Part shown: piece by piece, positions 4,254 to 42,571 of the stretch | Numbering within the stretch: the first letter of the stretch is position 1 | How the letters are laid out: each line of letters begins with the position of its first letter | NCBI GenBank assembly: GCA_001724265.1 | Contig: MEDY01000362.1 | Coordinates: forward strand, 1 to 45,957 | Source of the DNA: Rhizaria sp. SCN 62-66 | Taxonomy: Eukaryota | Length of the DNA stretch: 45,957 bases | Direction of reading: 5' to 3' | The notes under the pieces: generated by a model | Database searches by the model: none | Seen by the model: the letters and a program-made list of their open reading frames with translations, nothing else | What the model was told of the DNA's origin: nothing | Program-made: the position numbers and the translations under genes

Positions 4254-6760
4254 TCAGTACTCCTTGGGCGGGGGCACGACGAAGCGGTGCGCGAGCTTGG
4301 CTAGCGCGCGCGCCCAGCAGGGGTACGGCAGCGACCCGTCGGCCTCGGCCGTCACGACCTTGCTCTCACACTCACCTGCGCTGCCGCTGCGGGCACTGCC
4401 CACAGCCACAGCGGGGGCGGTCTGAGCGGCAGCGGCGGCCCTCTGCTGGTCTTGCTGCTGCTGGCGCACGTAGGCGTAGGCCGCGCAGCCGGCGATGGTG
4501 GCCACGGTGCCGGCAGCGGTGGCCGCCGAGACGTCGTTGCGGTACACGACCCAGCCCAAGAGCGACTGGAGGGTTGCCTTGGCCGTGCCGGAGACGTTAT
4601 GGGTCAGCGCCGAGGTGTACTGGAGCTGCAGCATGGTGGCCAGGGAGAGGAGGTACGCTGCCAGCGCGACGGCGGCGGCGGCGAGCCAGAAGGGCGCCGC
4701 GGAGGCAGCGAGGGGGGGGATAGCGGCCTTGATCCCGGGGGTGGCGAGCAGGACGAGGCCCAAGAGGGCCGTGGCGTTGGCGTTGACGTAGCCGACGAGG
4801 GCGGCGTTGGAGACCGGGAGCGCGGACATGGCGCGCTTGATCATGAGGGAGTACAGCGACAGGAGCAGGGAGCCGAGGACGCCATAGGCAAGGCCCCAGA
4901 GCGGGGCGCTCACGCTCACGCCACCGCAGCCAGTTACCGCGGCATGCGCAGTCGCAGCGGCGGCGGTGGACAGGCCGAGGTTGGTGGCGGCGGCAGAGAC
5001 GGCAGCGGCGACGGCCGGGAAGCGGGCCGCGGTGGCGGGGATGAGGCACGTGGTCGCAAGAGTGCGGACCTCTGTGAGGACCGTGGGGACGGCGCCGTCG
5101 CAGGCCAGCGCGTAGCCGCCGGCGATAATGAGGCAGCAGAGCGTTTCCTTAAAAGTGGGGCGGGCGCCGAAGAGGGCCGCGGCCAGGAGGATGTTGAATA
5201 CAACGGTCCAGGCGCGGGCAACCTATCGGAGTACGCGCAAACGATAAAATAGAGTAGATATAGCATGAGATAGAAGAGTTCTGGGGTGAAAATTGAATTT
5301 TCTTTTCAAAAGGTAAATAAATCAACATTAATCAACTCTCGAATCATGATATATCAATGTTATGAAAAACAACAATTAATAGAGAAATCGAGTTCTTTCT
5401 CTTCCTAGTTATACTGTCAACGTACTTGGTAGAAGGAGATGTGGACGTATGCGAGACAGAGGTTATTTGCGAGCAGCAGCAGCACAAACACAACCGACAC
5501 GGGCAGCGTGTGCAGCGCAGCGGGGAGCGACAAGTTAAGCCGCGGGAAGAGCTTAATGAGCGCAGGGCAGCCCGAGAACGAGGCGATGGCGCCCGCGATA
5601 GCGGTGAGCGCGACGGCGGCGACGAGCTGGGTCCAGGTGACAAACAGGGTCAGCTCGGGCAGCGCGGCCGTGCCGACCCCAGAGCCAGAGAGACCGGTGG
5701 CGCCAGTGAGGGAGGTTGCGGAGAAGAGGGCCTTGTTGAGGAAGACGACGAGGAGCGAGGTGACAAAGTAGAAGGCTACAACCGCGGCCACCGTAGCGCG
5801 CGGGGGCAGCGCCGACATGCACGACAGCGCGCGGGCAATGACGCCTCCGTGGTGGGGATCGGAGGAAAAAGGGCAGCCCGAGGCGGGAGCGTAGGCGGCG
5901 GGGTACGCGGCGGCGCTCGTGTCGAGGGTCAGAGACGCGATGCTACTGGCACTGCCACTGCCGTACGAGTGCGACTGAGACTGCGAGTGATAGGGCAACT
6001 GCGGCTGGGGCTTCGAAGGGGTGGCCGCGGGGGGACGCATGCGGAGGTGCTTCGCCGAGTAGCCCTCACCGCCACTCGGTGCAGCGGCAGAGCCCGTGTA
6101 GCCGGGAGTGTGGTTGTCGAGGTCCGAGTCCGAGTCGTTGGCGTCGTAGTCGCGGTCGTCATCGCCATAGAGAGGAGCCGGGGGCTGCTGCGAGCGCGAG
6201 CGAGAACGGGTCGTACGACCCGTAGCGGCGGCGGCGGCGGCGGTGGTGGTGGGGGCAGCGGCGGAGCCCTTTCTGGAGGTGGCATTTGAGATGCGGTAGC
6301 GGCCGCCGCGGGGGCCTTGCTCCTGCTCGGCCTCATCGTCGTCGTTGTCGCTGTCGGAGACGGGGAGCGCGGCGCGGGAGCGGGAACGGGATCGAGTCAC
6401 ACGGCTAGAGCCAGAGCCAGCAGATGCGGTGGCGGCTGAGGCGCGGGGGGGGCGGGCGGGGGTGGCGTCCTTGTTTTTATTCGCAGCGGCGGCGGCGGTC
6501 GCAGCCTTGGAGCGGGAGGCGGCCTTGCTGGGCGTCGGCTCGGGCTCGGCGGCGGCGGTGCGGCCGCGGGAGCTGGAGCGGTTGCGGGCAGACCGGGACG
6601 CAGCAGTGGCGGTGACGCGGGCGGGGGTGGGGGCAGAGGGACGCGCGCGGGAGCGGGAGCGGGAGCTGGAGCGGGTGCGTTTGGAGGCGGCGGCTTTGGA
6701 TGCGGCGGCGGGGCGCGCGGGGGAGCGGGAGGAGGAGCGGCCGCGGGGACGGGGAGGCAT
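4254..6760 (-). CDS. SLC35C1: GDP-fucose transporter-like nucleotide-sugar transporter (SLC35C1 family) with a ~320-aa Arg/Ser-rich N-terminal extension; exons 6760-5426, 5222-4254; ~767 aa
   Basis: Motifs 'YFVTSLLVVFLNK', 'LFVTWTQ', 'NNLCLAYVHISFYQVARAWTVVFN' (restored across intron 5425-5223, gtacgt...tag) and 'TSALTHNVSGTAKA' match SLC35C1-type transporters. Stop TGA. Confidence 0.85.
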
Positions 6761-8711: not shown

Positions 8712-9552
8712 GGTGGCAACGGTGGGGGCAGTGCAGCAGCAGCCAGTCGAGTTTGCGAACGGGAGCTTGAGTGAGGGTGAAAAGCTTGGTCTATATAAAG
8801 GCAAAGAGTATTAGCAAGAGGACAATAAAGTTAGCCAAGAGTGAAGATACAAAAGGGAAGAAGTCTTGGTATGAAAACAGAGCTAAAGAGAGACAGGGAC
8901 GGGAGTTGGAGGTTGATTAATGGGAAGCCAAGGTGACGTTGCTGGGTTTCAAAGGACGAAGGTGAAGCTCGACCAAGACGGCACTCTATGGGCGTCAAAA
9001 ATGAAGAATCCAAGCATACTTGTTGTATATTTCCCCTAAATCTCACTAACAGTGTGTACTGACGAGCGCAAGACCATGATCTGGCTGTGTCAGCAGCCCA
9101 CAGCAATAGATCACCTGGACGACTGTGAGCTCCGGTTGGTCGAGTCAGTGATCAAAAAGTGACCGTGTACAGTGCCATTTGGTCAAAACTGGAGAAGGCT
9201 AAGCCAAGCCGCCCCCTTGGCTCGGGTCTGCTCGGGGATCAATATCTCCGTTCCCTCATCGTCAAACGCGTCATAAATGCTTGAAATAGTGCATACCCGT
9301 GTTATTATATCTTGCCCAAAACTTACCACTGCTAAAAATGCCTGCTTCCCCTTCAAACTTGCCACTCCAACAGTCGCTTAGGGTTCCTTTGTGTGGCAGC
9401 TTAAACGCAGTACCCCCCTCTGCTTATCCCCTTCCAGCGGCGGCTTCTTTCCACCTCCGCAGCCGGAAACGCGCGTGCGGGCCCTGTATTTTGGCCTTTC
9501 AGCCTGTTGCCTGGTTTTTGCGCTCTCACCTCGCTTCCACGCCTCTGCCTCG

Positions 9553-25880: not shown

Positions 25881-26486
25881 CGTGGCAGACGTGAAAACTA
25901 GCAAGGCGGTAGTATAGGGACGCAGCAAGAGCGCCGGAGGGGGATGGAAGCGTCTGGGAAGAGAGGAGGAAAAGGGGAGCTAACTGGGCGCGGGAGAAGG
26001 ACTAGGAGGTACATAAGATAGTGAGTTATAGAAACGCAAAACAAATATTATAATGGAAACACGCGCTAAATTTGCTTTTCATCTTCAGGTTTACTGCTAG
26101 CGGAGAGTATATTGAACACGGTCAGGTGATTGCAACACGCGAATCGACATCGACCCGGAGCCAAGAGCGGGCGGCTGTGACCGTGAGCCAACCGTTGAGC
26201 TGAAAGGTGCGTGATGAGTTCAGCAAAAGCAGATGCGCGACTTGATAGGCACATGAAGTAGAGTAATATTAACATATTTTGTATTAATACTAGATAAATA
26301 ACTTAAACGTACTATTGGTGCGTCGTCCCCCAAACAGGAAGCGTGATAGATATCGCGCGAAAGTAGCCGAAGCAGAAGCGGAAGATTTGCTCCGCTTGCT
26401 CGCTTTTCTCTCACACCTCTACTCTCAACCGATATTCTCTCTGTTTGCGTCCGAGCTCTTTATACCTCACAGATCTAGCCACCGCT

Positions 26487-27788
26487 ATGCGCTTTAAGTT
26501 CCCGCGCGCGTGCGCAGCGTTCGCCCTGCTTGTCGCAGTCGCGGTACTGGTGCTCGCTTCCGTCTCCTCAGCCTTTGCCTCAGCGTCGAGCTACTCGTTC
26601 AAGGGGGGCAAGGGCGGCCTCGCGAAGGGCGGCGTCGCCAAGGGTAGCAATTTAAAGGGCGCTGTTGTCAAGAACACACCGTTCAAGGGCTTTGCCCCTC
26701 AAATCCAGAGCAAGAAGGAGCCTGTCATCATCCATAGCCAGAGCCAGAGCCAGAGTCAACAGGTTGAGAGCCAGAGCATGAGTCCTGTGGCGAAGAGCAG
26801 CAACGTCAAGGGATCGACTCCTGTTGTAAAGAGTGCCCCTGCTGTCAAGAGCACTCCAGCTGTCAAGAGCGCACCGGCTTTCAAGTCTCAAGGTCGAGCC
26901 CCTGTTCAGGTGCAAGCGCAGACGCAGGCGCAAGCCCCGCAGGTCCAAGCCCAGGCACAGTCGCAGCCGCAGTCAGTGCCACCGTCTCAGGTGCAGTCTC
27001 AGTCTGTACCGCAGACCCAGTCCCAGTCGCAGGCGCAGTCAGTGCAGCAGAGTCAGTGCCAGTCGCGGCCCCAGGCGCTGTCACAGTCAGTGCCACAGAC
27101 TCATTCTCAAGCGCAGTCGATGCCGCAGACGCAGGCCCAGTGCCCCCGAGCTCAGAGCCCTTGCCAGGCACGGTCTCAGTCCCAGTCGCAGTCTCCGCAG
27201 TTGCGGCCGCAGTGCAGCTCGATCCGCCACAGTGCCACAGTCTCCCACCCCAATCCCATCTTAGACAGCGCCAGCTCTAGCGCGAACATCAACACTTACC
27301 CTGACGCGACTCCGAGCGCTGAGAGTGGTGCAGGGACGGAGGCGGAGACGGGGGCGGCGGGCGGGAGTAGCCGCGCCGCAGCGACGGCGGCGCAGACCGG
27401 CATGCTGCGCTGGCTGCCGCGGGACCTCCTCATGGCGCCCTGCATCCAGCATGGGCACGAGGGGCTGGACGCGAATGCTAACGCGGAGGATGGCAGCGGC
27501 GGGTCAACAGAGCGCCAAGGCTGCGTGATCCTGCCTCCGTCTCTTCGTGACCCTAGTGACCTGACCGAGACGGACCTGAGCCGGCTGTCCTACTGCGACG
27601 TCTACATCCGCCTCGTCAGTCTGCGGGCCCGCGTTGCGTACGACCCCGACGACTTCGTGTGCGCGAATGAGCTCGTCTGCCCTGTGGGTGCCGCGAGCCG
27701 GTGCGGCGACGCGTGCTATGACAGTGATAGGTTCCGCTGTGTCGGGGGCAGTGAGTTGCGACCAGTGCCCGACTTGGTCGCGGACTAA
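26487..27788 (+). CDS. Secreted protein: signal peptide, Lys/Gly-rich block, VKS(A/T)P repeats, Gln/Ser-rich linker, C-terminal CBM52-like Cys module; 433 aa
   Basis: Signal peptide MRFKFPRACAAFALLVAVAVLVLASVSSAFA. C-terminal 'YDPDDFVCANELVCPVGAASRCGDACYDSDRFRCVGGSEL'. Stop TAA. Confidence 0.75.
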   Translation: MRFKFPRACAAFALLVAVAVLVLASVSSAFASASSYSFKGGKGGLAKGGVAKGSNLKGAVVKNTPFKGFAPQIQSKKEPVIIHSQSQSQSQQVESQSMSPVAKSSNVKGSTPVVKSAPAVKSTPAVKSAPAFKSQGRAPVQVQAQTQAQAPQVQAQAQSQPQSVPPSQVQSQSVPQTQSQSQAQSVQQSQCQSRPQALSQSVPQTHSQAQSMPQTQAQCPRAQSPCQARSQSQSQSPQLRPQCSSIRHSATVSHPNPILDSASSSANINTYPDATPSAESGAGTEAETGAAGGSSRAAATAAQTGMLRWLPRDLLMAPCIQHGHEGLDANANAEDGSGGSTERQGCVILPPSLRDPSDLTETDLSRLSYCDVYIRLVSLRARVAYDPDDFVCANELVCPVGAASRCGDACYDSDRFRCVGGSELRPVPDLVAD

Positions 27789-28137
27789 GTGCTAGCGCAA
27801 GAAGTCTAAGTACCTGCTTAGGCAAGACTAAGGAGCTGAGGTCCATCTTTTGTAACTTGGGGTACATCTGTTGTTGTTTTTGCTTATGATACGATTGAGT
27901 GAACAAAATGTAAAAAGTAAAGCAAATGCAAAAACAAAAGAAAACAACCAGCAGTTGCAGCATTGACGACAAGAATACAAAACGATTGTCCGCGTAACTT
28001 GAAACTTGATTCTACTAACTGGGACCGTTGCGAGATGAAGTGCAACATCATAAAGCGTAACAAGCATGACTTTACTGACATCTCGTTCGATAGCAGTTTG
28101 CAGCCGTAATAACCGTAGCAGTGACGACCTGAATGAA

Positions 28138-31100
28138 TTAATTATAGTTCATGTCATCGCGGTTGTCATTATAGCTACTATACCGTTCCTTCGCGTCCCG
28201 AATCAGCACATCATAGTCGAGGTTCACATACCCCAGGACCCCTTCTCGGAACTTTTTCAAGAACAGGGCCTGCGCACGCCGCTCCGTGTCCGGCGACAGG
28301 TCAAACTTCTCCTCCTCTCGCGTCAGCGGTAGCAGGTGTGGATCCACCCGTTCCCAGTCAACCTCGGTGCCGTGGCTCCGGTTGGCCCAGCCAGCTTCCG
28401 CCGCAGCGGTAGGCACAGACGCAGAATGGTGAGGCTTTGACTGGGGCGTGGACTCGGACATTGACTGGGACGGGGGCAGGTCACAGTCACTAATGGAGGA
28501 CGAGGAGTAGGTTTTGCGGGGTAGTTTATCTGCCCACGCTCCGGCCGCCCCGTGCCGCAGTCGGTCCTGCGCGAGCCTGACGCGCGCCCTAAGGAACCGC
28601 GCCCGCGCCTCGGGCTCCGTCACGGGCGCGCCCCATAGTGCGTGCGTATAGATGTGGTGCCAGGGCTTGACGTTGCCGTCGCGCCACTTATTGGCGCGCG
28701 CGATGGCTGAGTAGAGGGTGCTGACGTCGGCGGTCGGCAGCCAGTCGGGCAGGGAAAAGACGCGTGTGTACGAGAAATAACCTAGGGAATCGAAACATAT
28801 GCAACAAAACAAGGGTTATTAATTATACCTGTGAGTTAAATGTCAATTTATGAGCGCGTGATGAATAAAAACATGAGAAATATGCTTAATTCAACTTATC
28901 AGCAAAGCAAACCGTAAGTAATAGCGAACATAAAGCAAAAAAGTAATAATGATAGTAATGCAAGTAATGCAAGAGTGAACAAAGCGTACCCTGGCTGTTA
29001 AGCTCTTGTAGCAGCGCGGCGCACATCGCGTCGGGCTCCACGGCCTTGTCGGCGACACAGCCTGCGAGCGCGAGCCTGGCCGCCGCCGCGGGGCCGGCCG
29101 GAGATGCCTCGAGGTGGGGTGCCATGACGCCGGGCGTATCCAACACCACGACGGGGGGATCCTCGCAGACGCGGAAGCCTTGCACGTGGCGGGTCACGCC
29201 CGGCTGGGGACCCACGCGGGCCTTGCCGCCGGTGCCGGAGGCGGGGAGGTAGACGTCGCCCAGGCCCGAGAGGCCGTAGCCGTCACTATTTGATGTGTGA
29301 GAGAAAAACAAAGAGGAACAGTAATACAACACAGTCTAGATGAGAATTAAACAAAAATAAGTATATCAATTGAATGATAATATTGTTTTCCATTTAATTA
29401 CTAGGTTTCATGCTAGGTAATCGACATATGCGCGAGATACAATTGTTTTAGAGTGTGATGAAGGGACGCGTACCTGTAGGCACCAGCAACAACAGCAGAG
29501 CGCTTGAGAGCGTTGATGATTGTGCTCTTGCCGACGTTGGGGAAACCGCAGATCAGCACAGCGGTGGGCACGGCGCGAAAGCGGCGCGGCGGAGCGAGGC
29601 GCTGGATGATCGCGAGCAGCGTTTGCGGGGCAGCTGCGGAGGAGAGGGAGTCCGTCAGCACGACTGCGCCACGACCACCTAAACGCAAAGTTCATGAAAA
29701 ATGAATAAAATAAGATACTGATGTTTAAGCCTTTAATTAAAATTAAATGAACATTTAACAAGACATTATTTCCATCTAAAGTACACCATTACTATTGTAA
29801 GGCGCTTAAGATATACGTGTAATATGCGAATGTTGCAGTTCGCGAGTCGTACCTGGCAAGATCTTGTACGGGCACCACGCACGACCGCCACCAGTGAGGA
29901 GCTTGTTCAAATCCTTCTTGTCAGCAAGGGGGCTGACCCACGCGGCAGCAGGGTTGCTGATAGTTTTATTCTTACCCCCTTTGCCACTTGCACTGCTGTT
30001 GCTGTTGCTGTTGCTGTTTTTGCTGGTACTCTTGTGGTGGTGGTGATGGGAGAAGCTGCGGGGAGCGAGCCCTTCCTTCACCAGCTGCGTCTGGTACTGC
30101 CGCGATTGTTCTGCACTCACTGCAGGCCCCTCGGGCAGCCGGAGCAGGGCTGCTACAGCGCGGGCGCGGGCCTTCTGGCGAACCGCCTCCCAGTCTACAT
30201 TCGATACAGTCTCAGTGTTTGTCAGGCCCGTAGTCGAAGTTGCAGCAACGTCATTTTGACTCTGGTTTTGGTTCTGGCTGTTTTGAGCTTTGTTGAGCGC
30301 CCTTTGAATTTTCGCATCAACTTCAGCGTCTGCCCCGGCCTCCGCCGCCGCCACCATTTCCCTCCAGTGCAGCGCCGGCGCACCCAACCCCAGCGCGTTG
30401 TTAGACTGCGACTATGATTGGGAGCCGTTGACCGTGGGCAACTGACCGTGAGCCCGCAGCAGTTCCCTGGCCACCGCGTCAAGCAGCCCGGTCCCGGCCC
30501 TGGCAGCGGCGCGCGCGGCGGCGGTGGCGCTGTTTCCCGCCGCAGCCCCGCCCGTGGGTCCCAGCGCCAGGTCGGCTTTGTTGAGTACCACGACGCGCGG
30601 TTTCCCCGCGGCTACGCGGTCCAGGAGCGGGTTGGCCGACGACAGCGCACACCGGGCGTCGCGGACCTCGATCACCAGCTCCACGTCCTTGAGCTTCTCG
30701 GACATCGCTTGCACCGCGGCAGCCATGTGACCCGGGAACCAGTTGACGCCCGCAGCGGCGTCGGCTGTGAGGGCCGCCGCCGAATACGCTACGGCGGCGG
30801 CGGTGGCGGCCGCGGAGGCCGAGACGGAGGGGGAGGCGGCCGCAATGTTGGAGCCGTGGACGCCAGGTAGCTGGGCAAGGATACGATCCTTCTTCTCCCC
30901 ACTTTTGTTCTGAGAGTTTGCGATATTACTCCGCGCACTCTTGCTGTTGCTATTGCAGTTCATGCTGCTATCGGAATAGTCGAGGACCGCGTCGGCGTCG
31001 CTGTCGGACGCATACGGGTCTCGGCCCACGGCACTTGATGCACCCGCGCCGCCCAGCAGTGACGGTAGGGCCCCTGCGGCCACGGCGGCGGCCAAGCGCT

Positions 31101-32124
31101 TCGAGGCCTGCACACCGCGGGGCACTGTCGGACCCTGACTATAACTGTGAGCCTGATTGTGTTTGTGTGCATTGCTAGACTAGCCCTGACTCTGGTTTTG
31201 ACTCTGACCGAGGCTGTCGTGGTGCGGCGACCGGGCCAGCGCGTTCGAGGCCGCAGCCAGCGCCGCCGGCGACAGCCTCTGCTTGGTCGATTTGTTAAGC
31301 CGCCTCTCTCGTTCCGCTTTGCTAGCCCGCCTGGCCTCGGCCCGGTCCAGGCGGGTGTGCTGTGCGGCGTCGGCCGCGGCGCTGAGCCCGCCGATGCCGC
31401 CCGCGAAGGCGCTCTCGTCCGCGGTGATGACGTGGCCCGATTCTGTGATGTAGGTCGGAGCAATACCCGCAGTCGTTGTAGCGGCAGCAGCAGAACCAGA
31501 GTTGGTGTGGGCAGAGCTATTGGGGCTACTACTGCTATTGATGTGGCTGCTGGGGAGGATGCGTGCAGTGCGGGAGGAAGCTAGGGGAGTGTACTGAGCA
31601 AAATATGCATCATCGCTGGTAGTACTGGCAATGCTAGCAGAAGCAGAGCTGGGGCTCGTGTCTAAGCCTGAGTTAGGGATGGAGACAGAACCAGAGTCCG
31701 TGCGAGAGTGAGAGCTTGATCTCTTGCTCGATTTTGACAGCAGAACAGCCGCAGATGCATACCTAGTGGCGTTAATTTGCTTGCTATGCTGTTGCTGCTA
31801 TTGCGGCTGCTCTTGTTCCAGTTCTTGCTGTTGCTGTTGCTGATGCTGATGCTGTTGCTGGTGCTGCAGCTTACGGAGTTTCTCTTCCCTGGAGAGCGGG
31901 CGCGCGGGGCGGGCAAAGGCGGTCGGGTCCAGCGTCGCGTGTCGGCGGGACTCGGATAATACGGCGGCGTAGGCCGAAGCAGTCGAGGCATGCGCATTAC
32001 ACACAGCCGATGCAACGGATGTTGCCGTAGTTACTGCTGCCGAGAGCCCGCCGACTGTGGCGACAGTACGGGCAGCCCCGGTCGTGACGAGACTGCCATA
32101 GAGCGCGGTGGAACGGGAAAGCAT
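28138..32124 (-). CDS. MTG1: Mitochondrial ribosome-associated GTPase (MTG1/RbgA/YlqF family); exons 32124-29853, 29678-29474, 29285-28990, 28781-28138; ~1138 aa if three in-frame TAGs (31798, 31180, 30412) are read as Gln
   Basis: Circularly permuted GTPase motifs in order: 'NWFPGHM', 'VIEVRDAR', 'NKAD', 'GFPNVGKST', 'PGVTR', 'LDTPG', 'LALAG', plus C-terminal 'FLKKFREGVLG'. N-terminus MLSRSTALYGS resembles a mitochondrial presequence. Three GTACG introns with compatible phases. Stop TAA. Confidence 0.85.
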
Positions 32125-32932
32125 AGCAGATGCAGAGGCGTGGTGCTTGCAGCAGTGGAAAAGAAGCGAGGGGGAGCGCGCGGGGCCGGTAGTGCGGCGG
32201 TGGGGCGGAGAGAGGGCGACTTTGCGCAGTGGAGTCGAATAGAAGTAGGCGGCTTGCGCGGTAGGCAGACCTTTACTAGAAATAACATTGGAAAAAAGAC
32301 GCAAATTAGTTAAACATTATCATATTGCTTTTATGCGTTAACAGACGGTTAATTGAGACAGATATACATTATTTTATGATTTGCACGTAGTCTCCTCCTC
32401 TAGCTCAAATCCAGAGCCGAGAATGACACAGTTTCGGTGCATCCTACTATGAGGAGTACTCGATGTATATGAGTGCGTATATAGTTTCCATATAATACTC
32501 CGACGAAGATACACATACACTATTATTTGGGGGATATATGACGTGATCAGCGCAACACGAGTGCGAGAATTGCGACGTCGCGCCTCGAATCCCTCGACAG
32601 CTGCAGTCGCAGCGGCGGCGACAGCAGCCACTATTTTTGAACACGGACATGGGTTAGATGGGGCGAGGGTGCCGACTACGGACTGCGCAATGCGACAATC
32701 CTTGCGCTTGCGCTGTTGCATCCACCACGCCTGGGCACTGGAGCTGAGAAAGACGAACGCGGGCTCGCTGCTGTGGGCACAAACGTATCATTAGTGCTGA
32801 GAATAAGTAATCAAAACTTTCGTAGTAGTAAAAAATCGTGTGTTGTGCTAGTAAGCGTTTTCTTTGATTACAGGCAGACGCTTTAGCAGCTCCTACTCAG
32901 CCACTTCCTTCACGATCCAATCGACTGATGCA

Positions 32933-33238
32933 ACCGCGGCGCGATACATCCTCTCGCTGTCGCGCGCGCTGGACCACTGTCACTCGAAGTACATCAAGCG
33001 CCGCGCCATCAAGCCCGAGAGTATCCTCTTTTACGCGCGCGGCGGACTCAAGATTGCTTACTTTGGTTGGTCGGTCCACGCGTTGCAGAACGCAGCGGCA
33101 CGCTGTGCTGCACGTTCGACTACCTGCCGCCCGAGATGGTCAACAGCAAGCGCCACTGTTCACACGCACGCTGTTGACCTGTGGTCAATCGGCATATTGC
33201 TGTACGAGTTTTTGTTGGGTCCACTGCCGTTCATTTAG
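32933..33238 (+). pseudogene. Aurora kinase pseudogene fragment (subdomains VIa-IX)
   Basis: 'TAARYILSLSRALDHCHSKYIKRRAIKPESIL...LKIAYFGWSVHA', then a shifted frame giving 'TLCCTFDYLPPEMV', then 'VDLWSIGILLYEFLLGPLPF'. HRD is changed to RRA and DFG to YFG, with frameshifts and no N-lobe. Confidence 0.85.
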
Positions 33239-33628
33239 GATGTCTGAGTTCAGAAGATTCAAGTCCAGCTGGAATAGGTCGATTTGTATTGCGTGATTAC
33301 AAGGTCATGAATTGCTCAACACCATATGGGCACAAATTCCATCGGTTTGTTCGAGTCACTTTTCTAACATTTTCTGTACTACATATATTAATATCATATC
33401 AAGTCCTACCTGAAGGCGGGGCGCACAACGAAATCAGAGACCACCACCTGGGGAAAAAACGCCAAAAACCCTGGTTCGTACAAATACACAAACATAAAAA
33501 GAAAGAACAACTGACCATGTTTTGAATATCATATCTTGGAACGAACTCAAACTAAAAAAACAAACAATAAACAAAAACAAAACTTAAACAAGACTGTAAT
33601 ACATGGGTGCCGATTCGCCCTTGATGAC

Positions 33629-33781
33629 GGATGCAGGTGGGCACGCGAGCGCAGTAGTTGTCTTGGTAGTGCTGGCCGAAAAACCTTTCCAGCGGGACTT
33701 TCTCGGTGCGAATGCGGTCGACGATGGATTTTAATGCTTCGGCGGCGTAGGCCACGGCGCAAGAAGGGTGCAGAAGCATGA
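33629..33781 (-). pseudogene. Degenerate duplicate of the last ICMT exon
   Basis: Aligns by eye with 36919-37068: MLLHPSCAVAYAAEALKSIVDRIRTEKVPLERFFGQHYQDNYCARVPTCI versus MLLNPFCAVAYAAVAWKFFDDRIRTEEVPLERFFGQEYRDYRARVPTRI. Confidence 0.9.
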
Positions 33782-33785
33782 AATG

Positions 33786-36428
33786 TCAGCTCTGCCACTC
33801 CTTCTTAAGAGAAAAGTAACTGTGGTATTGCCTTGCAGTTTGCTGACCCTTTGCAAAGGCCTTCACGGTCTTCGGTTCTTTCGCATTTTTTAGCACGTTG
33901 ATGAGTTCTGGAAGCTCTTGAACCGGTTCAGTCTTAAGATCTTTGAGATATCCTAAGATTGTTAATGACACATTTTTTTCGAACTCTGGTGCCTGCTGCG
34001 TCTCTATGGAGTGAAATGGCTGACACTGCAACGTACCAGTGGTAATCATATCCACAATAACTTCCTTAGAGGGGATTTTGAGCTTAGTCTTGGTCACTAA
34101 ACTAATTACGCTTGTTAAGTTATCTTTTAAGATTGCATCATGGAACGCAACCGGATCAGTTACAGCTTTTAAGGCATAACGGAAGCTGCCTTGAACAGCT
34201 TTGGAAATACTTCTTACCTCGGTGAAACCCAGAGTATTGAGCCCTGTGATAATCTCGTTATATGACCAGGCATACGACCATAACGGAATGACGCAGATGT
34301 CTTTCGGCATACAGTCATGCTTTACCAGATTAACGCAGTTGTGACTTATTTTAGGAGAGGTCGTAATTACATTGGTTGCCTTATTCATCAGGCTGTAGAT
34401 AGGACTCAATTCACCCTTTTCGTCGGAATCAAAAAGATACACCGTATTCCACTTTAATAACATAACCTTTGCTCCGTTCTCGTCTAAACGTTCCACAGTG
34501 CCACTGCCGTTACGGTACAGATCAATGTCATTCCTTGGCATGTGACAAATGACATCCATTCCGAACTCAAAAAGCGCGACATACCATATGAGGTTGAGCA
34601 TAACTGATTTCCCAATGCCAGGCGGGCCGCTCACAACAAACTGCCTCCCGAACTCTTCGTGTCCAAACTCCGTGTGTTTAAAACCCGCATGGATTAACTT
34701 AGACACGCCCAGTTGAACCAAGATAGTCTTGTAAAGATGATAGTGTGACACCCGCAACATCAACAAACGAACGGCTTCAGAGTTGTAACCTGTGCCTCCA
34801 AAGGGAAAGTGGGGCATGGTGTCGGTGCTATTTGGGTTCTCAGGGACCTCAAGGATCTGAAAGACTTTGTTCTCACCCGTAGCATCATTAACAGTCCCCC
34901 ATTTCATATTAGGCTGCAACATGGCGAACGTTGCAAAGTTAACTTTGACTTCAGTTAAATGCTTAAGCAATTTAAGTTCCGTAATTTCCTTCAGCTCTGC
35001 TTCGGTTGCACTCCGCTGATTCTAACGCAGCTATGCCTCAGCCATCTTACGTTCGCCAACAGCCCACTGAAACATATCATTCGCATGACGCAACGTCTTT
35101 TGTGCAGCACGCAGTTGCGCTTTGGTGCTCTGAAGAATCTTGATTTGAGCCGGCAGCAGCCCGTTATGGTTGATTGGCAGCGTTTTCATTCTGAGTTCAG
35201 CATCAGTCACTTTGATCTTGGCCGTCACCACATTGTGCTTTTGTTCCGCCTCTCGGAACACATCTTGCGCCAGTTGGCGCTTATCCTTGGCCAATTGTAA
35301 CTAGGCATTGACCTTCCTGTGCTGGGCCTTGGCCACGGTATACTAGTATTGATATGTCAAAAGGTCCGACTGTGAACCTACTTTTTCAGGTTTGGGTGCG
35401 CTTGTGTTCACTACAGCTTCAGCAACGTCCATCAACTGCTTAGCTTCTTCTTTACTTCGCTTCGCCTCAATACAAGCCTACTCTGCCGCAAGGGTCGCTA
35501 ACTCGGTTTCTTTCTTTGCCAGGTTGGCTTCTTCCTTCACCAACGCAGCCTTAGCCATGTCGAGTTTAGCTTGAGCGACTGTCACATCTAGTTCAGCCTT
35601 CGCCTTCTCAGCAGCAACACGGTCGCGTTCAGCTTCTGTGTAGGGTTGTGTAGTCGTAATAATCTTGACAAGCTTGGAACTCGCTGATTTGAGCTACTTT
35701 TCGCAGCGTGCAACGCTCAACATCTCCCTGTCGATAGACCTCTTTGTAATCTCGATTAGCGACTGATACCACACGCGTTCTTTTTCATTTTCTAAAAAAA
35801 GAAGAGGGAAAGCAGATTAAATGGGGTTAAATCATGTGAGGTACTCGTATACTTTAAATAACCAAGGATTAACTTTAAGAATATCCCTTAAGATCAAGTG
35901 ATGATTATAAAAGTCAACAGACAAATGTTAGAGCCTCAATGCAAACAGTAACGTACGACTCGGAGCTTTGTTCTTGTCTTTGTCTCGAGCGCTGTTGTAA
36001 CAGTGCTGTGGCGACGCGGCCGATCGCTTGACGCCACCTGTAGTAACTCTGGTCGCTGTGGCGCCCGCATCTGCCTTGCCAGCAGTGGTGAACGCGCGGG
36101 CGACGGCGCCGACCACCGGCGACGCAGCAGCTGCCAGCGTCTGCTGCGGCTGCGGCCAGATCGGCGGCGCCGAGGCCCACACTTCCGCCCGAACGCGGGC
36201 CAGCGCGGTGTTAAGTGATGGGGAGGGGTGAGGGTCCGCAGTGGGAATTGATGGAAAGGCTAGGAGAGGGGGGCTTGGAGCGGAAGAGATTGCAACGGCG
36301 GACATCTGGATGCCGACTGAGCCGGATTGGGGTCTAGGGGTGGCAGAACGACTGCAACTAGCAAGTAAAAAGGTGCAGGATGTGTGCGGTGCAATGCAAC
36401 GCATTAGACGCTTGCTAGCATATGACAT
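33786..36428 (-). CDS. Coiled-coil plus Crinkler/RHS-type P-loop NTPase protein; exons 36428-35957, 35791-33786; ~825 aa if six in-frame TAGs are read as Gln
   Basis: A phase-1 intron 35956-35792 (gtacgt...ttttttag) joins ORF 35928-36428 to a frame that runs to 33786 broken only by TAG. It encodes an Ala/Glu/Lys-rich coiled coil, then 'FVVSGPPGIGKS' (Walker A), 'VYLFD' (Walker B), 'ITTSP' and 'IPLWS', a layout typical of CRN/retrotransposon-hot-spot NTPases. Stop TGA. Confidence 0.65.
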
Positions 36429-41018: not shown

Positions 41019-41377
41019 CGTGTTATACTCCTTGCAAAGTCTCTCACAAGAATCAGACCATGACTCGTGTGACCGAGCTGACTGGCGGTGGCGAGCGACG
41101 TGTGAGCCACAGTCAAACGACCACAAATACTCAAACAGAGCGGAAAGCACCTTATACCGTAATTTATGCAGATAAATTCATGATTTCATAATACCTGACT
41201 TTTTAGACTACGTGTTTTCGGTATTGTGTCCATGTACTACTACAACATAGCAAGATGTATTCAAGGAGAGATTAGAATCTTAGATAGAGAAGAGAATCAC
41301 ACGCAACCTCATCAGTTACGAGAACGTCCGTGTCAAAAGGAAGGAGAAGAAGCAGAGGCAACAGCGCGTTGCTTACT

Positions 41378-42571
<1,194 letters not shown>

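Follow-up and report, generated by a model that had tools for sequence, protein, structure and literature searches.

UAG-only nuclear codes and the window as a possible further case

When UAA or UAG takes on a new meaning, the other nearly always does so too, and it is against this background that we describe contig MEDY01000362.1 (45,957 nucleotides; "the window" denotes this whole stretch throughout), in which two minus-strand genes, one for the mitochondrial GTPase MTG1 and one for a coiled-coil/P-loop protein, carry nine in-frame TAG codons between them. Our reading, to which we give slightly better than even chances, is that UAG is probably a sense codon in this organism, one that is seldom used and most likely stands for glutamine (Gln, Q), and that UAA and UGA terminate.

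Nuclear codes in which UAG alone has changed meaning amount to a handful in print, namely those of Iotanema, Rhizaria sp. exLh and some phyllopharyngean ciliates (PMC5304391, PMC11687900). Iotanema spirale (Fornicata) has nuclear UAG as Gln and UAA and UGA as stops (PMC5304391), and the window would resemble it in the UAG-only change, in the retention of UAA and UGA, in the Gln proposed here and in the scarcity of UAG; in Iotanema, however, UAG stands at conserved Gln columns in many genes and its meaning was inferred by likelihood (PMC5304391), whereas in the window it occupies no conserved column and is found in two genes in 46 kb. The organism is also a different one, being GC-rich, intron-bearing and endowed with MTG1, the presence of which means that it presumably has mitochondrial ribosomes. 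The phyllopharyngean ciliates Hartmannula sinica and Trochilia petrani likewise read UAG as Gln (PMC11687900), and the likeness would extend to the UAG-only nature of the change and to UAA as the preferred stop, but UAG is widespread as a sense codon in these ciliates, in contrast to its very sparse use in the window; suppressor tRNAs have been found in a related ciliate Leu lineage (PMC11687900). Rhizaria sp. exLh (Sainouroidea), in which UAG is Leu, with 384 in-frame UAGs in 71 genes and stops divided between 56 UAA and 15 UGA (PMC5304391), would share with the window organism its standing as a non-ciliate protist, a UAG-only change, the preference for UAA over UGA (12:6 in the window) and an uneven spread of UAG between gene classes, and the window TAG at 35478 has Leu/TTG as its aligned counterpart, at a core position of the heptad; the exLh UAGs are mostly at conserved Leu (PMC5304391), whereas the window's other TAG columns are polar and its MTG1 TAGs sit in Gln repeats.

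No report of UAG reassignment in a non-ciliate wastewater eukaryote was found in the literature searched, supplements lying outside the reach of that search. If the reading is true, the window organism would be a further member of the UAG-only codes in another non-ciliate lineage, unusual in that the codon is used very sparsely and unevenly, and as an independent non-ciliate case it would provide a data point on the uncoupling of UAA and UAG. There would be a practical side as well: standard-code gene callers split TAG-bearing genes, so eukaryotic bins from wastewater would be mis-annotated, and the databases do carry pieces of the two genes (e.g., P0003 and P0129).

Two genes with in-frame TAG codons

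The stronger of the two cases is the minus-strand gene at 32124-28138, which, judging from its sequence, is MTG1, a mitochondrial GTPase of the YlqF type, as its motifs follow the circularly permuted order G4 (NKAD), G1 (GFPNVGKS), G3 (DTPG) and it shows homology to named MTG1/YlqF proteins. Exon 1 (32124-29853) opens with ATG and a presequence-like N-terminus (MLSRS...), contains NKAD and ends at the 5' splice site G/GTACGA; exon 2 (29678-29474) holds the G1 motif and matches Pfam MMR_HSR1 (E = 3.3e-6); exon 3 (29285-28990) holds the G3 motif between splice sites read from the sequence as AG/ and /GTACGC; and exon 4 (28781-28138) ends in TAA at 28138-28140. The frame of exon 1 contains three TAGs, no TAA or TGA and no frameshift over 757 codons. 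The first TAG (31798-31800) lies within a CAG/CAA (Gln) run (CAA TAG CAG CAA CAG), the second (31180-31182) takes an alternate-Q position in GQSQNQSQG_SS (CAG GGC TAG TCT), and the third (30412-30414) falls in an SQSQS repeat (CAA TCA TAG TCG CAG) in the interval between G4 and G1, which means that a working MTG1 protein requires it to be read through.

Whether the frame across these codons is homologous to coding sequence can be judged from P0130, the MTG1 ortholog of a relative, which is a continuous, TAG-free open reading frame (ORF) of 517 amino acids on a 17-kb JGI contig. It is collinear with exon 1 of the window gene from residue 141 to the end of the exon and then runs directly into exon 2, with a core about 85% identical and differing by conservative changes, and an exon 2 that is 81% identical (counted from the alignment). 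Conserved islands common to both (LxREEKL, YFxxYxPLxSSR, RLNK, GALPSL, RDPYA, the GTPase core, AALLRLPxGPA and WCPY) stand in one frame and flank each of the three TAGs on either side; the MTG1 frame across the TAGs is thus homologous to coding sequence and has been retained. The TAGs themselves all sit in gaps of P0130, that is, in Q-rich or SQ-type low-complexity inserts made of CAG/CAA-rich DNA, while GC content at third codon positions (GC3) in the core is 0.8-0.88.

As an observation on the gene structure, intron 1 of MTG1 (29679-29852) is missing in P0130, in which a single ORF runs through exons 1 and 2 (CPYEVLLGGRGAVVL), and this confirms the first splice site of the window gene; on the sequences compared, these close relatives differ by the gain or loss of an intron.

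The coiled-coil/P-loop gene, also on the minus strand, consists of exon 1 (36428-35957), with its ATG at 36428 and its end at C/GTACGT, and exon 2 (35791-33786), with the P-loop GPPGIGKS and the stop TGA at 33786-33788. Exon 2 contains six in-frame TAGs (35694, 35478, 35343, 35301, 35031 and 35022), reaches its terminal TGA without any earlier in-frame TAA or TGA, and has no frameshift in 676 codons. For both genes this is what a preliminary description of the window had reported: three TAGs as the sole breaks in MTG1 exon 1, each in the Gln-rich context it described and the third between NKAD (upstream, in exon 1) and GxxxxGKS (GFPNVGKS, in exon 2), and six TAGs, at these very positions, in the other gene.

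The product comprises an N-terminal region, a long coiled coil and a P-loop domain, and its C-terminal 411 amino acids resemble Crinkler/RHS P-loop proteins in predicted fold (template-modelling score 0.62-0.67) and in language-model features (0.96-0.97). In profile searches, hmmscan returned no Pfam family for the full read-through protein P0001 (nor for the other one, P0002), the RHSP (PF07999) and Crinkler (PF20147) profiles did not match, and the C-terminal part gave only a weak AAA_10; by predicted fold and features, without a profile match, the gene resembles the Crinkler/RHS kind, from which the long coiled coil and the separate first exon set it apart. Its GC content is 0.46 and its GC3 0.51, compared with a GC3 of about 0.8 in neighbouring genes.

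The family is small, with 15 representatives among 1.84 billion proteins and several paralogues per metagenome, and relatives are encoded by two metagenome contigs, L001 and L002 (two of 166 pattern matches), the latter of which retains the layout of a homologous exon 1, a GTACGT intron and exon 2. Across each of the six window TAGs the reading frame remains homologous to L001, L002 and the proteins P0138 and P0139. L001 and L002 carry a single in-frame TAG apiece, in other columns, with homologous flanks and no TAA or TGA; the gene in L001 stops at TAA. Opposite the L001 TAG (45-47) there is E in L002 and P0138, K in P0139 and Q in the window, and three proteins from ENA contigs (P0149, P0152 and P0150) stop after ...KLDKTS, at exactly this column, the stop being read from the protein records only. 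The eight TAG columns of the family align to H/K, L, A, E, S/T/N, E/K, E/K/Q and E/K/Q; two of them hold the codons TAG/GAG/CAG and TAG/AAA/CAA, from which it follows that those TAGs occupy sites where the polar residues E, K and Q vary freely, and elsewhere TAG columns stand opposite GAG, TTG, CAT, AGT/ACA and GCG. By our own reading of the heptads, five of the six window TAGs would be at polar positions of the coiled coil.

In both TAG-bearing regions the sense frame has no TAA or TGA, compared with 7-50 in each of the other five frames, and position-wise shuffling produced sequences free of in-frame TAA and TGA in 8 of 2000 trials for MTG1 and in none of 2000 for the coiled-coil/P-loop gene. 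Relatives' alignments and frame counts taken together, UAG is found in both genes within coding sequence the frame of which is kept.

The nine TAGs are all present without change in DNA contigs of X2 (2025) and X4 (2017), runs from other studies and not the likely source of the window; among the matches listed, the two runs jointly cover nine of nine and both cover three of them, with no differing letter. In a polyA metatranscriptome (X6), contig record 28 (30262-30687, depth 5.3) bridges the TAG at 30412 without a difference or a gap and unspliced, and another contig (27948-28210) covers the 3' end of MTG1; depth is zero over 33992-35989, most of the coiled-coil/P-loop gene, a hole in contig cover that is uninformative either way; run X13 contributed no usable cover. 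These data bear on the possibility that assembly or sequencing errors or unrecognised introns are at work and that the mature mRNA has no TAG, an explanation which could appeal to exon models drawn from sequence alone and to RNA cover at a single TAG, and which nevertheless has been largely refuted and seems highly improbable: besides the identity of the independent DNA contigs (which disposes of assembly error, a possible objection named in the preliminary description) and the unspliced RNA contig, the relatives' homology runs through the TAG columns of the coiled-coil/P-loop gene, and introns in the window are AT-rich, 165-330 nucleotides long and start with GTACG, whereas the surroundings of the TAGs are GC-rich, exon-like and in coding phase. 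Hidden introns around the TAGs were accordingly rejected, no GTACG-type sites being present there.

In the window, on a small sample, genes end at UAA and UGA and not at UAG, with 12 TAA, 6 TGA and no TAG among 18 ORF ends, about eight of which are backed by homology (ERD2, CapZ-beta, CYRI, GAPDH, ICMT, Rab with its C-terminal CC, TPT and MTG1). Under an assumed 20% share of TAG among gene ends the probability of this is about 0.02, which is suggestive only. The preliminary description had counted 16 gene models rather than 18 ends, and its statement that none stops at TAG holds. Several TAGs that might be taken for in-frame sense codons, at 5223, by the Rab exon (40464) and 5' of the ORFs at 9382, 20358 and 26367, proved to be in splice acceptors or upstream of ORFs.

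Possible readings: sense decoding, decay or leaky termination

Were UAG read as sense, it would be no effective terminator: the ribosome would insert an amino acid, most likely glutamine, and genes would end at UAA and UGA. A UAG-reading tRNA such as tRNA-Gln(CUA) would presumably take part, with recognition of UAG by eukaryotic release factor 1 (eRF1) weakened. Within the window in-frame TAG is confined to the recently expanded low-complexity inserts of MTG1 and to the fast-evolving coiled-coil part of the Crinkler/RHS-like gene, and conserved, strongly codon-biased genes avoid it; so sparse and uneven a pattern fits a young or inefficient reassignment. The CAG/CAA runs and the Q position of the SQ repeats in MTG1 make glutamine the most likely residue. 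The full proposal of the preliminary description, a code with UAG as Gln, therefore fares unevenly: it is supported by the frame kept in relatives, the TAGs fixed in independent samples (one of them in polyA RNA) and the lack of TAG ends among the 18 ORFs, and it is strained by TAG columns whose counterparts in relatives are E, K, Q, H, L, S/T and A and by eleven ORFs with 164 CAG codons and no TAG.

Several observations weigh against sense decoding. UAG is not found as a sense codon across many genes of the window, two genes carrying it, and the eleven other ORF segments (7,319 codons, with 164 CAG and 34 CAA) have no TAG at all; this count left out ERD2, ICMT, Rab, exons 3-4 of MTG1 and four more ORFs, which as standard-code ORFs are TAG-free by construction. 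Using TTG versus CTG as a yardstick (17.6% TTG, a free choice of T or C at the first position), the zero has a probability of about 2e-14, and TAG to CAG-plus-CAA (CAR) counts of 9:76 in the two TAG-bearing genes and 0:198 elsewhere differ with a Fisher p of 1.5e-5. TAG is thus strongly avoided in most genes, from which it follows that, if it is read, either its use is rare and probably comes at a cost or the change is young; the caution already raised in the preliminary description, that Gln-rich genes here are free of TAG, is sustained by the ORF at 26367-27788 with its 43 CAG, 8 CAA and no TAG. Alignment of UAG to conserved Gln columns, which the same description had named as a check, was found at none of the window TAGs, none of which stands at any conserved column, so that glutamine is drawn from repeat context only. 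The TAG at 35478 aligns to Leu (TTG in L002) at an 'a' position in the heptad core. Neither the window nor L001 nor L002 yielded a tRNA gene. The RNA cover extends to one of the nine TAGs and consists of an assembled contig, for which DNA carry-over is possible. Slippage in trinucleotide-type repeats is mostly in-frame, which weakens the argument from the missing frameshift for MTG1. Multi-copy, fast-evolving families of the Crinkler/RHS-like kind are rich in pseudogenes, and the family dN/dS (the ratio of nonsynonymous to synonymous substitution rates) of 0.5-0.7 denotes weak constraint that does not separate a functional gene from decay. Finally, a kinase pseudogene lies between the two TAG-bearing genes, which suggests that the neighbourhood may be decaying.

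That pseudogene, a protein-kinase relic on the plus strand at 32855-33244 (wider bounds 32540-33300), covers positions 95-198 of the 263 in the Pkinase profile (E = 1.4e-15) and contains TGA, TAA and TAG alike. By our own reading against kinase motifs, its VAIK lysine, HRD and DFG are replaced, and two compensating frame shifts surround the activation segment; it is a true pseudogene, Aurora-like by the same reading, and serves as an internal control, with the frame shifts and mixed stops that decay leaves here. It is among the points in favour of a standard code under which MTG1 and the coiled-coil/P-loop gene would be two recently inactivated pseudogenes, the TAGs being nonsense mutations (CAG, GAG, AAG or TTG to TAG) that were fixed as selection relaxed, either in a part of the chromosome undergoing decay or in a duplicated segment with working copies elsewhere. 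Such an explanation would also account for the restriction of TAG to two genes with none in the 7,319 other codons, for the position of every TAG in an unconstrained segment, for the membership of one of the genes in a multi-copy Crinkler/RHS-like family with its relaxed dN/dS, and for the GC and GC3 by which that gene differs from its neighbours. We nevertheless consider it rather unlikely, albeit the main rival. In a neutral nonsense spectrum computed from the codon content of five sequences, TAG makes up 43-57% of new stops, so that the probability of all 11 stops (nine in the window and two in the relatives) being TAG is about 3e-4, and the independent family members in L001 and L002 carry TAG only; no frameshift has accrued across 757 plus 676 codons; the MTG1 core and exon 2 remain 81-85% identical to P0130, with conservative changes and a core GC3 that is still high; MTG1 is found in polyA RNA, as an assembled contig; and none of the 18 ORFs ends in TAG. 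Nor is there a mutational signature favouring TAG: directed mutation, whether by deamination of 5-methylcytosine (5mC) in CpG or CWG or by repeat-induced point mutation (RIP), was considered as a source of the TAGs and rejected, the AT-rich non-coding DNA having observed-to-expected ratios of 0.99 for CpG, 0.95 for CAG/CTG and 0.80 for TAG, with CpA not depleted, which also leaves deamination in a CAG context, an objection anticipated in the preliminary description, with no trace.

Between full sense decoding and termination there is room for an ambiguous UAG, one that partly terminates and is often read through by a suppressor or near-cognate tRNA-Gln, possibly depending on context, low-dose genes tolerating a few TAGs and other genes purging them. 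This would explain why TAG is the only stop codon concerned and also why it is so strongly avoided elsewhere, and the bases following the codons could be enlisted for it, as the next base is a pyrimidine in seven of the nine in-frame TAGs and a purine after 10 of 15 true TAA or TGA stops. That difference comes from a small sample, however, no TAG terminator occurs in the 18 ORFs, and with three leaky stops in succession in MTG1, and six in the coiled-coil/P-loop gene, the losses at each would compound if read-through were anything but very efficient; we regard ambiguity of this kind as improbable.

Sense decoding of UAG, the reading we prefer, might be taken one step further, to a UAG-only change (to Gln) caught while still young and costly, the host being a non-ciliate eukaryote, deep-branching and widespread in wastewater reactors; we put this forward tentatively, as a possible extension that we hold to be doubtful. 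TAG would in that case already be unused as a terminator and readable, having so far accrued only by CAG-, GAG- or AAG-to-TAG changes in young low-complexity inserts and in a fast-evolving family, with conserved genes still free of it. On the preferred reading itself, the very low and uneven use of TAG could illustrate how an early or inefficient reassignment manifests itself in a genome; the organism would, if the extension is true, be a natural example of the intermediate state postulated by models of codon reassignment.

Host, neighbouring genes and minor observations

The window covers 46 kb of a eukaryotic chromosome that is rich in GC (exon GC3 about 0.8), with genes for a KDEL receptor (ERD2), a TPT-type transporter, CapZ-beta, CYRI, ICMT and GAPDH, a Rab-like GTPase with a C-terminal CC and a Jagunal-like ORF; no Rfam family was matched in it. 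Its DNA occurs in metagenomes that several studies obtained from bioreactors and wastewater, with four runs each containing at least 0.93 of the sampled words. Scans of genome contigs with CapZ-beta and with the alignment of the coiled-coil/P-loop family found no relative, and a scan of viral contigs gave the same result.

CapZ-beta has a relative 88% identical in metagenomes, the next matches being at most 64%, and its best organism-labelled match is that of Paulinella chromatophora (59%), followed by Ploeotia (54%), an organism label being available for two of the six matches looked up; the MTG1 core matches 'Mitochondrial GTPase 1 / YlqF' of Aphanomyces at 58-61%. At such identities the assignment of the organism to the SAR protists (stramenopiles, alveolates and Rhizaria), suggested in the preliminary description, is weak, and its "long-intron" epithet overstates introns that, where delimited, measure about 165-330 nucleotides. 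These introns are AT-rich (about 30-40% GC, against 60-70% in exons), and we take their length and GTACG-type starts, like the high GC, not to be ciliate-like. Almost all 5' splice sites of the delimited introns read GTACG(N), e.g., at 29852, 29473, 28989, 35956 and 5424, and at about 3291 in L002.

Two further observations concern the coverage of the window. At its low-coordinate end, the X6 RNA contig over the 3' end of MTG1 (27948-28210) has 10 unmatched letters, adjoining a stretch (27913-27947) where reads seem to be cut and which may be a poly(A) site common to two convergent genes. The stretch 41318-41983 has a depth 5-10 times that of the rest of the window in all four runs, along with many joints and loose ends; it is the conserved core of GAPDH, so that contigs from other organisms probably map to it.

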